Source: Carcharhinus amblyrhynchos (Eukaryota). Taken from it: a DNA stretch of 64,000 nucleotides. The stretch covers positions 76,942,001 to 77,006,000 of the forward strand of contig OZ336874.1 in assembly GCA_965287045.1 (NCBI GenBank), written 5' to 3'. Positions 1 through 60,592 of the stretch are shown here, piece by piece (within the stretch, counting starts at the first letter, position 1; each line of letters opens with the position of its first letter). Under the pieces are notes generated by a model. The model was not told the DNA's origin, did no database searches, and saw only the letters and a program-made list of their open reading frames with translations. The position numbers and the translations under genes are program-made.

Positions 1-1700
1 CATTCTAATGTCTTCCACAAGGGGAAACATCCTTTGGTTAGCTACCTGATCAAATCCCCTCAGGATCTTATATGTTTCAATTTGATCGTCTGCCAGTCTT
101 CTAAACTCTAATAGGTAAAGGCCTAACCTGTTCAACCTTTCTTCTAAAGGTTTTAATCCCAGAAATGAGTCCCAGTGAACCTTCTTTGAATTGCTTCTCA
201 CAATTATGCCTTTTTTCAAATAAGACGACCAAAACCGTACACTATTCCAGATGTAGTCTCGCTAATGCCCTGTACAGCTGCCGTAAAATTTCCCAATGCT
301 TATGTTTTATTCCCCTTGCAATAAACACCAACATACAATTTTCCTTCCTAATCACTTGCTATGTCTGCCTTCTAACTTCTTGTGATTCATGCATCAGGAC
401 ACCTAAATTCTTCTGTAGCAGAGTTCTGTAATCTCTCTCTATTTATACTGCTTTTCTATTCTTCCTGCCAAAAACAAACATGTTCAAATTTCCCACGTTT
501 TGCTCCATCTGTTAAATTTTACCTAATCACTTAACCTAGCCATGTCCCCTTTACTTCTTCTTGATAATTTATTTTCCTACTTACCTTAATGTCATTGGCA
601 AGTTTGGTGAATGTACATTTGGTCCCTTCATCCAAATCTTAATAAAACAATAAGACTATAAGTAGTTGAGGTCTCAGTATTGATCCCAATTGCACTCCTC
701 CAGTTACAGCTCGCCAACCCAAAAAAGATCCATTTATCCATAATCTCGGCTTCCTGTTAGATAACCAGTATTTATCCTTGCTATAACGTTACCCCTATTA
801 ACTTTTGAAATGACACATTATCAGTTGCTTTTTGAAAATTCCAGTTACACCTCATCTAAAGGTTCCCCTTATTTTACCTTGCTTGTTAAATCTTTGAAGA
901 ACTCTAATAAATTTGTTAAATATGGTCCCCTTTGCACAAAACCATTTTCACCGTACCTAATTCCATTATGATTTTCTAAGTATCCTGCTAAGATCTCTGC
1001 AATAATGGATTCCAGCATTTTCCCCTACGACAGATGTTAGGCTACTGACCTCCAGTTTGCTGCTCTCTGTCTCCCTTCTTGAATAAGGTGATCATCTACT
1101 TAGCTATTACTACATTAGCTATTCCTTCCAGAATCTAAGGGATATTGGAAGATTGTAACCAATGTGTCTGCTATCTCTGCAGCCACTTCTTTTAAGAGCT
1201 TACGGTGCAGGCCACTTTGTGCTGGGGACTTTTCAGCTTTTAATTTTTCAAGTATCTTCGAGAAGTTTTCTAAGTCTTTTACAGTGAAGCCAAAAACAAT
1301 TTTTTAAAAAATCTTTATTCCAATTCAATCCAATCCAATCAAATCAAATTCAATTCAGAGTCCCAACAAGTTGGGACATTCCCGATCCAAGCTGACCAGA
1401 CAGGGCTCTCACCTCCTGTCTTGGGCTCGATCTACATGATCCACGTTGATTGGAGTAGGTTTAGCTCCTCCTCCAAGGCTTGATCTCATTTGCATCTTAG
1501 CCAAAAGGTACTTGTTCAACACTTCCACTGTTTCCTTTTTTCACATTAGTAATTTCCCATTTTCACTCTCTAGAGGACCAACACACATTTTAGTTACTCT
1601 TTTCCTATTTAAAAACTCTCATTAAAACATTTATACAACTCATACTAAAATAAATGTTTGAATATCTTCTTGTGTACAACAAATCTTGCATTATCCAAGG
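1..1700 (-). mobile_element. Degenerate CR1-clade LINE ORF2 fragment (RT and C-terminal region), interrupted by the insert at 1300-1508
   Basis: Reverse-strand sequence typical of CR1 ORF2 (e.g. aactgtacacagtattccag-like, tactgatccc-like, acagatgttaggcta segments). It parallels the better-preserved CR1 at 6991-9130 and has many stops and frameshifts. Confidence 0.8.
1300..1508 (-). mobile_element. SINE-like insert with U2 snRNA-derived 5' head, internal hairpin and AATAAA/A-rich tail
   Basis: The minus strand begins CCTTTTGGCTAAGAT, identical to the U2 snRNA 5' region, followed by GCAAATGAGATCAAG. There is a hairpin gtcccaac-aa-gttgggac at 1360-1377, a (GATTG/GAATT)n run, and an AATAAA plus A-rich end. 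The element interrupts a CR1 fragment. Confidence 0.65.
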
Positions 1701-6990: not shown

Positions 6991-9130
6991 ACAGAAACGT
7001 AGAAGAAAGGAGTAGAGGGAGCCATTTGGCCTTTCAAGCCTGTTCCACCATTCATTATGATCATGGCTGATTATCCTACTCAATAGCCTAATCCTGCTTT
7101 TTCCCCATAACCTTTGATCCCATTTGCCCCAAGTGCTATTTCTAGCCATCTCTTGAATACATTCAATGTTTTGGCATCAACTACTTCCTGTGGGAATAAA
7201 TTCCACAGGCTCACCACTGTTTGGGTGAAGAAATATCTCCTCACCTCCATCCGAAATGGTCTACCCTGAATCCTCAGACTGTGACTCCTGGTTCTGGAAT
7301 CCCCCTCCTTCAGGAACATCCTCCCTGGATCTGCCTTGTCTAGTCCTGTTAGAACTTTATAAGTCTCTATCAGATACCCATCATTCATCTAAACTCCAGC
7401 AAAAACAATCCTCACCTTGTTAATCTCTCCTCATACATCAGTCCTGCTATCCTCGAAATCAGCTTGGTAAACCTTTGCTGCATTCCCTCAAGAACAAGAG
7501 CGTCCTTCCTCAGAAAAGGATACCAAAACAATACACAGTACTCTAGGTGTGGCCTCATCAAGGGCCTGTATAATTGCAACAACACATTTCTGCTCCTGTA
7601 CTCAAAACCTCTAGCAACGAAGGCCAACATACCATTTGCATTCTTTATTGCCTGCTGCAACTGCACGCTTACCTTCAGTGATTGGTGCACAAGGACACCC
7701 AGGTCCCACTGCACATTCCCCTCTCCCAATTTACAGCCATTCAGATAGTAATTTGCCTTTTTGTTTTTGCTTCCAAAAAGTGAATAACCTCACATTTATC
7801 TAAATTATACTGCATCTGCCATTGATTGGGTTTCTCACCTAATCTATCCAGATCATTCTGAAGAACCTCTGCATCCTCGTTGCAGTTCACCCTTCCACCC
7901 AACTTGGTATCATCTGCAAACTTTGAGATAGTACATTTTATTCCCTCATCCAAATCATTAATATATATACTATATATAGTGAATAGCTGGGGTCCCAGAA
8001 CCGATCCTAGTTACTGCCTGTCAATTTGAAAAGCATCCATTAATTCCAACTCTTTGTTTCCTCTCTGCCAACCAGTTTTCTATCCATCTCGATACGTTTC
8101 CCCCGATCCCACATGCTTTAACCTTGCACAATAATCTCTTATGCAAAGTCCAAATATATTACATCGACTGGCTCCCCCTTATCAACTCTATTAGTTACAT
8201 AGATAGAATCATAGAACCCTACAGTGCAGAAAGAGACCCTTCGGCCCATCGAGTCCGCACCAACCATGATCCCACCCAGACCCTACCCCTACATATTTTA
8301 CCCACTAATCCCTCTAACCTAAGCATCTCACTAAGGGGCAATTTTAGCATGGCCAATCAGCCTAACCCACACATCTTTGGACTGTGGGAGGAAACCAGAG
8401 CACCCAAAGGAAACCCATGCTGACATGAGGAGAATGTGCAAACTCCACACAGACAGTGACCTGAGCCAGGAATCAAACCCAGGTCCCTGGAGCTGTGAAG
8501 CAGCAGTGCTAGCCACTGTGCTACTGTGCCATCTTCAAAGAATTGACATCTTCAAAGAATTCCAACAGATTTGTCAAGCATGATTTTTCCTCTTCATAAA
8601 TCCATGCTGTCTCTGTCTGGTCCTGCCAAAGCTTTCTCAATGCTATAAAGTCCTTGATAATGGATTTGAGAATTTTCCCCACAACTGATGTTAAGCTTCC
8701 TGGTCGATAATTCTCTGTTTTCTCTCTACGTCCCTTTTTGAATATTGGAATGACATTAGCTACCCTTCAATTTGCAGGGACTGTTCCAGAGTCTATAGAA
8801 TCCTGGAAGATGACCACCAATACATCCACTATTTCTAGAGATACTTCTTTAAGTATTTTAGGATGTAGATTGTAAGGCCCTGGGGATTTATCCACCAATT
8901 CCATCAACTTTCCAAGTGTCAATTTTCCAAGCACCATTTGTCTACGAATATTGGCTCCCTCAGTTCTTTCCTCTCACTAAATCTTGCATTTTCCAACATT
9001 TCTGGCATTTGATTTATGTCCTCTTTTGTGGAGTCAGAACCAGAGCACATATTCAAATGCTCAGCCATCTCTTTGTCCCCCATTATACATTCCCCCATTT
9101 CTGTCCATAGGGGAACCTACATTTGTCTTA
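6991..9130 (-). mobile_element. 5'-truncated CR1/HER1-like LINE (RT domain to 3' tail), interrupted by a HE1 SINE
   Basis: ORFs 7741-7953 (ISKFADDTKLGG...NLDKCEVIHF), 7412-7729 (DLGVLV...RPHLEYC) and 7080-7388 (RTRSHSLRI...FFTQTVVSLWN) are canonical CR1 ORF2 motifs broken by frameshifts. Confidence 0.95.
8198..8530 (-). mobile_element. HE1-type V-SINE
   Basis: tRNA-like head (ggcacagtagcacagtggctagcactgc; gggtttgattcc), V-domain (gtgtggagtttgcacattctcc...ggtttcctcccacagtccaaagatgtg) and HER1-like tail (tctgcactgtagggttctatgattctat). Confidence 0.92.
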
Positions 9131-11955: not shown

Positions 11956-12370
11956 AGAGTTTAGAAGAATGAGGGGAGATCTCATTGAGACGTATAAGAT
12001 GATGAATGGGATGGATAGGATAGAGGTGGAGAGACTCTTCCCGCTCAAAAAAGACAGTAGGACTAGGGGGCACAGCCTCAAGATAAAGGGGAGGCGGTTT
12101 AGAACGGAGTTGAGGAGGAACTTCTTCACTCAAAGGGTGGTGAATCTCTGGAATTCTCTGCCCGTTGAAGTGGTGGAGGCTGCCTCGCTAAATATTTTTA
12201 AGAAGCGGGTTGATGGGTTTTTGATAAGAGAAGGGATTAAGGGTTATGGGGAGAGGGCGGGAAAGTGGAACTGAGCCACGACAGATCAGCCATGATCTTA
12301 TTGAATGGCGGGGCAGGCTCGAAGGGCTAGATGGCCTACTCCTGCTCCTATTTCTTATGTTCTTATGTTC
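11956..12370 (+). mobile_element. Young 5'-truncated CR1/HER1 LINE 3' end
   Basis: Intact ORF2 C-terminus MRGDLIETYKMMNG...RTRGHSLKI...FFTQRVVNLWNSLP with a 3' UTR ending in (ttcttatg)n. Confidence 0.95.
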
Positions 12371-21000: not shown

Positions 21001-21014
21001 ATGTATCAGTGACA

Positions 21015-21435
21015 CATAAGAACATAAGAAATAAGAGCAGGAGTAGGCCATCTAGCCCTTCGAGCCTGCCCCGCCATTCAATAAGATCATGGCTGATCTG
21101 TCGTGGCTCAGTTCCACTTTCCCGCCCTCTCCCCATAACCCTTAATCCCCTCTCTTATCAAAAACCCATCAACCCACGTCTTAAAAATATTTAGCGAGGC
21201 AGCCTCCACCACTTCAACGGGCCGAGAATTCCAGAGATTCACCACCCTTTGAGTGAAGAAGTTCCTCCTCAACTCCGTTCTAAACCGCCCCCCTTTTATC
21301 TTGAGGCTGTGCCCCCTAGTCCTGCTATCCTTTCTGAGCGGGAAGAGTCTCTCCACCTCTATCCTATCCATCCCATTCATCATCTTATACGTCTCAATGA
21401 GATCTCCCCTCATTCTTCTAAACTCTAACGAGTAC
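21015..21435 (-). mobile_element. Young 5'-truncated CR1/HER1 LINE 3' end, near-identical to 11956-12370
   Basis: ORF 21108-21443 differs from ORF 11969-12274 at only a handful of residues and has the same tail. Confidence 0.95.
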
Positions 21436-21599: not shown

Positions 21600-23150
21600 G
21601 CCATTCAGAAGCTGGGTTAAATATTGGAAAAGTGGCATACAGGGTTGGGAGAGGTCTTGCTTAGAAGAATCACCAACTGTTTTACTCCTGGTCTTCTTCC
21701 TCCAGTGGGGTGGCACGGTAGCCCAGTGGTTAGCACTGCTCTTCACAGCTCCAGGGACCTGGGTTTGATTCCCGGCTTGGGTCATTGTCTGTGTGGAGTT
21801 TGCATGTTCTTCCTGTGTCTGCATGGGTTTCCTCCCGGCGCTCTGGTTTCCTCCCACAGCCCAAAGATGTGCGGGTTAGGTTAATTGGCCATGCTAAATT
21901 GCCCCTTAGTGTCCTGGGATGGGTAGGTTAGAGAGATTAGCAGGTAAATATGTGGGGAAATGGGGATAGGGCCTGGGTGGGATTATGGTCAGTGCAGACT
22001 CGATAGGCTGAATGGTCTCTTTCTGCACTGTAGGGTTTCTGTGATTCTATGACTGCATGGCTTGTCTCTGTGAATGGCACAGCATGCAATAAGCCACTAC
22101 AATTCTAGAAACTTACTATAGGGCAAGACTGCAAGGCACCACCAGAGTGATCCAGGCACCTGAAACTTTCTTTGAACATGTCTATGGCTTGCTTATGAGA
22201 ACTCAGATATCTAGATATTTTTTCACTGAACTGATGCTCAGCATCAGTACCTTGGTTCATAATAGGAGCAGTGAACCAGGTGCAGAGTGGATACTCACTG
22301 CCTTCAAGCAGCCAATCTGGCATTTGCTGGTCTGGATTGCAAATGGGGAAATTGAGGATCTTTGCAGAATGAAGGCATCATTGAGGAACAGACCTCAATA
22401 TTCACTTCTTAGGGCTACAGTTATTGTAAGGGGAATAACTTGGCAGTGAAGGATATAAGTGGAGCCTAGTCTTCACACAGGACAAGCCTTTACCTAGAGA
22501 CACAATTGCATAGTCCTACACCTCAAAATCTACCATCCACAGTTTTCAACCTGCTCCAATCTCTGAACATAGGTGACTGTCCAGTTAGTGACTTCCACTT
22601 GAATACAATTAAACACCTAATTCATATCCAATTCACAGCGGCCCAGTTGAACATTCAGGCAGTAGCAACCGGTCTTGTTCTAAAAACATTGGTGTTTCTT
22701 GAAGGAGATAGTGCGGGTTAATGTATGAACAAGCAAACCAGCAATGTGGACAAATGAAAGATCTCTCCTCCTGTTCAAAAGCCTGTATTGAGAAGTCTGC
22801 TCTGGCAGCTGTTTGGTGCTCTTTTGCATCTGTTTGATAGCTGCATTATTAGCGAACTGACTGCTGATGTTTACCTCACTTATTACGCCCTGAAACTAGA
22901 TCAGGGTATAAAAGTAGGAAGCCGCCATTATCGTCACAGCTCCAGGCTCTGACCATTTGTTCTTTGGCGTCAATGTTTGCTTGCAACAGGTAGGGTAGAT
23001 CAGTGCTGCCTACCTACTGAAGTGTAGCCTCCTTACACACCCTGAGGTGTGACATGTTATTCTGGAATACCCAAAATCTGCAACCTCTCATTCGTCCTTG
23101 CCTCCTTCGCCATATTTCTTGACTTTGCACCGGTCTTTCCTAAGAGGCTT
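21600..23150 (-). pseudogene. Decayed PIF/Harbinger DDE transposase (HARBI1-like), interrupted by a HE1 SINE
   Basis: Collinear minus-strand motifs: CVRRLHFSR, GAVTIMAASYFY, FQGVISEV, GCYCLNVQL (cf. GFHSLNVQL), DAFILQRS, WLLEGSEYPLCTW (cf. WLLGDxGYPL), QAIDMFKESFRCLDHSGGALQ and IVVAYCML. Multiple stops and frameshifts. Confidence 0.85.
21707..22052 (+). mobile_element. HE1-type V-SINE, full length
   Basis: A box tggcacggtagcccagtgg, B box gggtttgattccc, V-domain and tail tctgcactgtagggtttctgtgattctatga. Confidence 0.92.
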
Positions 23151-36768: not shown

Positions 36769-37070
36769 CATAGAATTCTACAGTGCAGAAGGAGGCCATT
36801 CAGACCATCAGGTCTACACCAACCACAATCCCACCCACGCTCTTGTCCTGTAACCCCACATATTAACCCTGCCAATCCCCCTGACACTAGGGTCAACTTA
36901 GCATGGCCAATCTACCTAACCCACACATCTTTGGGCTGTGGGAGGAAAGCGCAGCACTCGGAGGAAACCCATGGGGAAAATGTGTAAACTCCACACAGTG
37001 ATCCGAGGCTGGAATTGAACTTGGGTCCTTCTTGTTGAGAGGCAGCAGTGCTAACCACTGTGCCACCGTG
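36769..37070 (-). mobile_element. HE1-type V-SINE
   Basis: Same head, V-domain and tail as 8198-8530. Confidence 0.9.
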
Positions 37071-42719: not shown

Positions 42720-43880
42720 ACAGTTGTCAGCAGTTGTAGAACACATCTTCACCCTGTGTAGATACAGCAGTTGTAGATTATATCTTGACAATGTGTAGGT
42801 ACAGAAGTTATAGAGCACACTTGCATACTGTGCAGCTACAGAGGGCATTTTTCATAACCACGTCTACACATTTGTGAGGATGTGATAGATTGTGGTGTCA
42901 CACCATGCAGACGCTGTTCTGATAGATCATAACATCACACTGTGCATCAGTGGTGATTGTAATGGTACACTGTAGGTGCATCGGTGGTGATTGTAACATG
43001 CCATGCAGGTACATGAGTGATAGATCTGAACATCGCACTATCTATGTGCATGAGCGATAGACCATAACATCACATTGTGTTAGTACAGTTGCAATAACTC
43101 ATATGTGTAGATGCATCTGTGATGGCTTGTAGTGTCAAATTGTATAGGTGCATGAAGGATACGTCATAATATCACACTGTACAAGTGCAGTTATGATAGA
43201 TTGTACTATCACACTGAAGGTGCAGTTCTGATAGATTGTAATATCACACTGTAGGTGCAATAGTAATCGATTGTAATATCACACCGTTGGTACATCTGTG
43301 ATAGCTTGTGGTGTTACATGTGATAAATCATAGTATCAGATTGTATAGGTGAAGTTGATTGCAATATCACACTATGTAGGTGTAATAAGTTGCCTCAGGA
43401 TGTCCCAACTTGCTTCGCAGGCGTCAAAGTACATTTTGATTGTAGCGACTGTTGTAACGTAGAAAAGCAAGATGAAAACTAGGGCATAGCAAGGCCCCAC
43501 AAACAACGATGAGCGAAATGACCAGGTGATCTGCTTTTGAAGGATTTTATTGAGGGATAAGTCTTAGCCAGGACACCTTGAGAATGTCCCTGCCCATCTA
43601 AGGGCTTGGATTAGTATCTCACTTGAAGGACAGAACCTCTGACAGTGCTGCACTCTTATACTGCATTGGAGTGTTAGCCTGGATAATGTACTCAAATCTC
43701 TGTGGGACTTAGCACACAGCCTTCTTGGACAAAAAAGCCACAATTGAACTAAGGCTAACAGTAAGGATAGATTGTTATTGTTACAGTATGTAGGTGCAAA
43801 AGTGATAGATTGCATTGTATAAATACCGTAGTAATGGATTATGTTATCACACAACGGGTGCAGTAATAGTGATTGCGCCC
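42720..43880 (+). repeat. Degenerate ~35-37 bp minisatellite, interrupted by a SINE at ~43388-43760
   Basis: The unit is approximately gtgatagattgtaatatcacactgtaggtgcagtt. It is repeated through ~43385 and resumes at ~43762-43880. Confidence 0.85.
43388..43760 (-). mobile_element. SacSINE1-like DeuSINE
   Basis: Reverse complement of the family at 17801 and 35020 (gacagaacctctgacagtgctgcactc...tactgcattggagtgttagcct). Confidence 0.75.
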
Positions 43881-60290: not shown

Positions 60291-60592
60291 TTAGAATCAT
60301 AGCATCCTTGCACAGCAGGAGGAGGTCATTTGGCCCATCGAGTCAGTGTTGACAACAACCACACCCAGGCCCATTCCTGTAACCCCATGTATTTATCCTA
60401 GCTAGTCCTCCTGACAACTAAGGGGCAATTTAGCATGGCCAGTTCACCTAACCAACACATTTTTAGACTGTGGGAGGAAACCGGAGCACCCAGAGGAAAC
60501 CCACGCAGACACAGGGAAAGCGTGCAAATTCCACACAGTCACCCAAACTGGGCCCCTGACACCGAGAGCAGTGCTAACCGCTGTGCTGCCCC
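60291..60592 (-). mobile_element. HE1-type V-SINE
   Basis: V-domain gactgtgggaggaaaccggagcacccagaggaaacccacgcagacac, with tail at the 60291 side. Confidence 0.9.

Follow-up and report, generated by a model that had tools for sequence, protein, structure and literature searches.

Known snRNA-headed and U2-targeting elements

SINEU elements are crocodilian retroposons with U1- or U2-derived heads, and the published account records none outside crocodilians (Kojima, 2015, PMC4494074). Their insertions are described as showing duplication, truncation or neither and, because U1 and U2 lack an internal promoter, the author leaves their transcription open (PMC4494074). Some crocodilian Tx1 families in the same report also have U1 or U2 heads (PMC4494074). 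At insertions of Keno (Tx1 clade) and Utopia the 3′ flank begins at U2 nt 39 (PMC4640811; PMC6136364, citing Kojima and Fujiwara, 2004), and relaxed specificity is described for crocodilian Utopia and Tx1-Mar (PMC4640811; PMC4494074).

The element considered here is a minus-strand insert in a stretch of 64,000 nt of Carcharhinus amblyrhynchos DNA (the window). The nearest known elements are SINEU-1J and its partial duplicate SINEU-1E (PMC4494074). Like SINEU, the insert is short (207 nt in this truncated copy, below 500 bp) and non-coding, starts with a U2-derived piece and ends in an A tail (A6, short and old); it also shares an internal duplication, a T run in the head, the lack of an obligatory target duplication and a body of unplaced origin. 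Unlike SINEU, it is not crocodilian, it lies in a CR1-type fossil instead of Mariner-N4 (SINEU prefers Mariner-N4_AMi), and it carries an AATAAA-T6 end and box-like motifs, whereas SINEU is described as being without promoter-like sequence (PMC4494074). Since it departs from SINEU in distribution and target, it is not filed as a member; by analogy, it would work like the crocodilian elements but have arisen independently. With Keno and Utopia it shares U2 sequence up to about nt 38 on the 5′ side, but it has no ORF for an endonuclease or reverse transcriptase, and its 3′ flank is CR1 rather than U2 from nt 39 onward. The order AATAAA, T run, A tail (seen in one copy) and the box-like motifs recall B2, Dip and Ves, which are T+ SINEs (PMC8466645); in contrast to these, the head is U2 with no tRNA found, the box gap is 60 nt, the head contains T4 and the organism is not a mammal. 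As in tailless U2 retropseudogenes and snRNA-LINE chimeras (PMC5322556; PMC4494074), a 5′ U2 fragment has been retroposed, but unlike in the tailless retropseudogenes it is followed by 180 nt of body and tail, shows no clean duplication and has a junction common to two copies. Judged by the features that define each of them, it is none of Keno, Utopia, T+ SINE and tailless retrocopy. The evidence below makes it very probable that the insert is a real U2-headed short retroposon.

The insert and its CR1 host

The preliminary description had placed an insert of ~210 bp in a CR1 fossil, read on the minus strand. The insert is real, but its size is corrected to 207 nt: when all excisions were tested against a second CR1 copy, the best four each removed 207 nt, in equal placements from 1298-1504 to 1301-1507, and the host minus 207 nt forms an ungapped alignment, colinear with the second copy at 9110-8990. 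The whole insert is accordingly set at 1300-1506 or 1301-1507 (minus strand), as a 5′-truncated copy of a short retroposon. The host is an ORF2 fossil, also on the minus strand, with its downstream part at 1-1299 and its upstream part at 1508-1597; both were recognized because ~850 nt align with the copy at 7.3-9.1 kb, the upstream part through the excision test as well. The second copy matches Pfam RVT_1 (E 4.5e-6), the frames of the host itself have no Pfam match, and the clade name CR1 is our assumption. The insert is non-coding, with stops in all six frames and no ORF above 60 codons, and inspection of the six frames revealed no recognizable coding remnant.

An 8-mer is identical at 1288-1295 (minus strand) in the host and at 1499-1506 in the head of the insert; nearby recurrence of this kind is found at 170 of 127,960 sites. 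This pair underlay an earlier caveat that the U2 match might partly be target duplication. Taken as a duplication, the 8-mer implies removal of 211 nt, which leaves the host 4 nt short, whereas the 207-nt excision keeps the CR1 frame without any duplication; this places the U2-like letters within the insert. A duplication followed by a 4-nt deletion is a conceivable alternative origin of the pair. By the frame test there is no clean duplication, and the host 8-mer possibly guided the joining of the 5′ end.

Several other features occur in the window. A tRNA-headed SINE of ~330 bp, which we take to be the V-SINE type of sharks and rays, is present in five copies that are 72-84% alike (8203-8531, 21711-22050, 32456-32708, 36768-37070 and 60292-60587), the first of which interrupts the second CR1 copy. 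A 413-bp pair (11956-12368 and 21014-21426) is 97% identical, inverted, 9 kb apart and related to CR1 3′ ends, representing a young repeat family. At 22108-22377 (minus strand) a weak match to Pfam DDE_Tnp_4 (E 4e-4) marks a Harbinger-type transposase remnant, and tandem arrays lie at 42728-42841 (37-nt units) and 43167-43309 (35-nt units). A CpG-rich region at 24.6-26.7 kb includes a 39-codon first coding exon with a signal peptide and GT donor (25836-25953, plus strand). This exon presumably belongs to ephrin-A5, in which case the insert lies ~24 kb upstream and is intergenic; searches of PDB and Pfam with 25836-25952 gave no confirmation. The insert itself is dead and apparently intergenic, and nothing indicates that it serves the host.

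The U2-derived head

That the insert begins with the U2 5′ stem-loop region, as had been proposed, holds: 1508-1494 (minus strand) equals U2 nt 13-27, the 3′ side of stem-loop I, at 15 of 15 positions. The reference is a U2 gene verified by Rfam (L001, 183.5 bits). The two letters at 1507-1508 may represent microhomology to the host at the junction. A T4 run (1503-1506) stands at the start of the head. The exact U2 15-mer is the sole one among 127,972 window starts, and the Rfam U2 model matches at 14 of 14 positions (13-26) with 6.9 bits (E 5.5) when the 28-nt stretch 1481-1508 is scanned alone; wider Rfam scans detect no U2, and the whole window has zero matches at gathering scores. Taken alone, the U2 match is modest, with a blastn E of 0.033. 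When tiles were compared with U2 by Smith-Waterman alignment, the one with the insert scored 36, three of 319 tiles scoring higher and one equal. Its weight comes from its position, since it begins no more than 2 nt from a junction that was defined independently.

Beyond nt 27 the head is diverged. A gapped alignment assigns 1482-1493 (minus strand) to U2 nt 28-40, the branch-site-pairing region, and ends at about the Keno/Utopia insertion site. The 11-nt insertion initially described in the head is one of several possible alignments but not the best: the best local alignment reaches U2 nt 40 at the cost of a one-base insertion, one substitution and the loss of two bases. The anchored extension past nt 27 is equalled by 92 of 3,000 random pieces (3% level), and U2 homology stops at nt 36-40.

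A second copy

One translated frame of the insert was searched against 1.84 billion protein representatives and gave three matches. The first, P0001 (E 2.9e-8), is an unnamed singleton of 74 aa from a 1,548-nt contig and is known as a protein only; it is a spurious ORF that reads out of a flank into the element. The other two, P0002 and P0003 (E 5e-4 and 6e-4, 42%), are tandem-repeat proteins and were dropped as chance. P0001 agrees with the insert at 28 of 41 residues without gaps, with at least 16 differences in 126 nt, and neither PDB nor Pfam returned anything for it. Its residues 1-30 have no match in the host flank of the insert and may come from the beginning of a CR1 endonuclease. The U2 letters in the head of the insert are encoded again by residues 33-36, so these letters are not a duplication. 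Residues 31-32 fit U2 nt 8-13 with zero mismatch, equalled by 524 of 103,228 random four-codon windows (0.5%), and residues 29-30 fit U2 nt 2-7 with one mismatch each (all four residues: 742 of 103,228, 0.7%). The fit to U2 extends beyond the junction of the insert, and the element is not single-copy, head and body being shared in register. The wider claim of a multi-copy, non-coding, U2-headed retroposon is supported by two copies with 126 nt in common, although the count stops at two.

This second copy bears on two alternatives. The U2 match could be chance plus target duplication, the insert being an ordinary LINE 3′ UTR fragment; the blastn value given above is compatible with this, as is the fact that the host 3′ flank repeats 8 of the 15 letters that match. 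However, besides the 4-nt deficit that duplication leaves in the host, these letters follow a different flank in P0001, where the U2 match also reaches further. This explanation is largely refuted and very improbable. Alternatively, a LINE enzyme might have jumped from a 3′ UTR to U2 RNA, producing a template-switch chimera with no U2-targeting ancestor and perhaps no family. Chimeras of snRNA and LINE and 3′-truncated U2 retrocopies are documented (PMC4494074; PMC5322556), but the junction and the departures from U2 are common to both copies, which independent switches would not give. In both, G replaces U2 C28 (residue 37 of P0001 is Met) and the same frame crosses the head-body junction, which argues for one master rather than two fresh chimeras. 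A chimeric origin of the copies is accordingly improbable; a single template switch founding the master is possible.

P0001 also bears on the octamer that had been noted in the head. A perfect octamer is present at 1488-1495 (minus strand), but the suggestion of an internalized snRNA enhancer fails: the window holds 13 octamers (1-10 in 20 shuffles), and none of the 20,736 possible encodings of P0001 residues 35-42 contains one. An snRNA distal element within the transcript would also be out of place, as it is described as working from ~220 bp upstream of the start (PMC4494074). The octamer is private to this copy, incidental, and plays no part. Equally hard to credit is a head formed by the 3′ end of an HDV-like ribozyme. 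An HDV model is the best weak match in Rfam (E 1.8 and 7.2), but it scores 10.6 bits against a cut-off of 44, and nothing as long as 4 nt within the 92 nt upstream is complementary to the putative closing strand. Ribozyme and octamer enhancer were rejected on score, missing complement and P0001 encodings, and a head of either kind is extremely improbable.

Body and 3′ end

Repeated GATC modules had been reported in the body. They are present, but are in fact the ends of two duplicated hairpin units of ~54 nt. The body is a degenerate dimer (1490-1438 and 1437-1382), with a duplication score reached in 1 of 5,000 shuffles, and each unit is a hairpin closed by GATC with a B-box match at its start. 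Unit 1 (1438-1490, minus strand, ~54 nt) has arms at 1467-1476 and 1450-1459 and a B-box consensus at 1477-1485; its degenerate duplicate, unit 2 (1382-1437, minus strand), has arms at 1415-1421 and 1398-1404 and a B-box consensus at 1424-1432. At its start, unit 2 still shows letters of U2 nt 26-40 (branch-site-like), a likeness found in 392 of 20,000 random 29-mers; this suggests that the duplication took in the last part of the head.

The remaining features described earlier, namely the 8-bp hairpin, the pentamer run, AATAAA and the A-rich end, are all confirmed on the minus strand. The perfect hairpin (1360-1377) gives z -2.7 (7 of 500 shuffles) for 1350-1385, a region picked after inspection. 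It is followed by a T/G-rich run of ~7 pentamers (1319-1357) and by the 3′ end (1300-1319), which consists of AATAAA (1314-1319), T6 (1306-1311) and A6 (1300-1305). This arrangement of AATAAA, T4 or more and A5 is the sole one among the 119 AATAAA sites of the window. P0001 ends before this third hairpin and the tail, so the tail is known from one copy only.

Folding of the whole insert is unexceptional (z -1.64, 13 of 200 shuffles). Three stem pairs are compensated between the two units, a number equalled in 68 of 500 shuffles and drawn from two sequences only, and of the 14 changed codons in P0001 three fall in stems, at least one breaking a pair. These observations do not amount to a demonstration of selection on structure. 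A MITE was considered and rejected, no terminal inverted repeat being found among nine inverted pairs.

Searches for further copies

Within the window, self-BLAST finds no second copy, the best Smith-Waterman score is 31 (28-33 in shuffled controls), and a covariance model of the two body units gives a next match of 13.3 bits (E 0.14). BLASTN has no match in plasmids and two chance matches in phages (E 0.7). Among proteins, the plus frame 1301-1480 returns nothing and two further frames return one candidate, none at E ≤10 (four of the six frames searched in all); a profile including P0001 recovers P0001 alone among six candidates, and the ESM Atlas is uninformative (best 0.77, twice). No report of a U2-headed SINE in cartilaginous fishes was found in the literature searched, subscription journals excepted. 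The family may already be catalogued under an unclassified name, Repbase and Dfam lying outside the search.

A scan for the head in contigs of bacterial species-representative genomes detected 35 loci (L001-L035), by inspection 33 U2-like and 2 chance; the insert body is absent from all of them. Rfam, applied to 14 of the 35, identified U2 in 12. The 33 loci are eukaryotic U2 genes in bacterial assemblies, that is, eukaryotic contamination; some lie in tandem arrays of ~2 kb or beside 5S, U1, U5 or tRNA genes. In L002 (290-340) a U2 5′ fragment (~nt 1-42) runs directly into an inverted near-copy of one of its own parts, beyond which the sequence is no longer U2. This is a U2 pseudogene that has been rearranged, with its break near the U2 position at which the head of the insert ends.

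Origin of the element

The preferred reading, to which we give an even chance, is a SINEU-like non-autonomous retroposon that goes back to an element of Tx1/Keno type inserted at nt 38 of U2, this copy being 5′-truncated and dead. The master would have combined a fixed U2 head (nt 8 or earlier to ~nt 40) with the body of duplicated hairpins, ending in a polyadenylation signal and an A tail, and would have been born from a Tx1/Keno-type element, or a remnant of its UTR, at the site between U2 nt 38 and 39. The external Pol II promoter of the U2 gene would then have produced an RNA starting with U2 nt 1-38 and ending in AATAAA and poly(A), and a poly(A)-priming LINE, most likely of the Tx1 clade, would have copied this RNA elsewhere by target-primed reverse transcription. 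Landing in a CR1 fossil would reflect relaxed target choice without a clean duplication. After a staggered cut the 5′ end may have been joined by microhomology, the match between target and head guiding the joining, which would explain why the copy is truncated at nt 13-14 and why it has an 8-mer in common with nearby host sequence. About half of the 5′ junctions of ZfL2-2 are reported to have microhomology, which is common at LINE 5′ junctions (PMC2666801).

A Tx1/Keno-type master is favored because the head ends at nt 36-40 and the 3′ flank of Keno and Utopia starts at nt 39; from the sequence, a connection with a U2-targeting element is plausible. Human U2 retrocopies likewise often break off close to the nt 36-40 region, so the end point of the head does not single out Keno. 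Further findings stand against the preferred reading: the empty site is no more similar to a Keno/Utopia target than 3,136 of 127,920 sites (top 2.5%), the window contains no autonomous partner, and there are two copies only, the second being a protein that covers 126 nt without the tail.

Rather than a short retroposon, the insert could be the joined 5′ and 3′ ends of an autonomous U2-headed Tx1 LINE with an internal deletion, and P0001 could then represent the beginning of that long element. P0001 ends before the tail, so the second copy need not be short, and both U2-headed Tx1 families (PMC4494074) and bipartite non-autonomous LINEs (PMC5786205) are reported to exist. However, the window contains no autonomous LINE with the 5′ or 3′ end of the insert, and its six frames are without visible coding remnants. 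An internally deleted LINE is unlikely, and the difference from a SINEU-like retroposon is mainly one of name.

Transcription

Transcription from a U2 promoter is not the sole scheme that fits the insert. It could instead be a self-transcribing Pol III SINE of the T+ type, polyadenylated and copied by an L1/Tx1 enzyme, in which a single substitution converted part of the U2 head into an A box, a B box lay 60 nt further on in the body, and transcription stopped at the T6 behind AATAAA. The A box is a relaxed, A-box-like 11-mer in the head (1493-1503, minus strand) that needs the G for U2 C28 shared by P0001. With this box starting at 1503 and the B boxes at 1485 and 1432, the insert has what U2 itself lacks, and P0001 is compatible with all three. 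Pairs of A and B boxes with a gap of 25-70 nt occur three times in the window, one being the head of a tRNA SINE, and the A/B layout of the insert is found in 75 of 127,586 random 207-nt pieces. These patterns were, however, picked after inspection of the sequence; a stricter A-box pattern with one mismatch allowed has no match on the minus strand, and the first B box may simply be duplicated U2 nt 26-31. The gaps of 7 and 60 nt also differ from the 30-40 nt described (PMC8466645).

The ends of the insert are similarly two-sided. AATAAA, T6 and A6 reproduce the defining layout of T+ SINEs (PMC8466645), but these are reported from mammals only and are all tRNA-derived, and the T6, known from one copy, could be a decayed tail. 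The T4 run at the head start would be an obstacle to Pol III: TTTT terminated ~95% in a tRNA context, and T runs served to exclude Pol III for SINEU (PMC4494074). On the other hand, TTTT terminated just 65% of B2 transcripts (PMC8466645). Taken together, transcription of the insert by Pol III is possible but doubtful.

Significance

If a vertebrate lineage far from crocodilians has an independent U2-headed family, snRNA heads would be seen to have originated repeatedly, and a head ending at the Keno/Utopia site would tie the birth of such heads to U2-targeting LINEs. Given the box-like motifs and the T+-like end, a single construct would be enough to put the mode of transcription to the test. 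It is unlikely that this is a cartilaginous-fish SINE in which one substitution turned a fragment of U2, a Pol II snRNA, into the A box of a new internal Pol III promoter, joined to a B box in the duplicated hairpin body and to an end like that of mammalian T+ SINEs. If true, no snRNA-headed SINE before it would have had a promoter of its own and no T+-type SINE would have been found beyond mammals, and the transcription of snRNA-headed SINEs could be tested directly.
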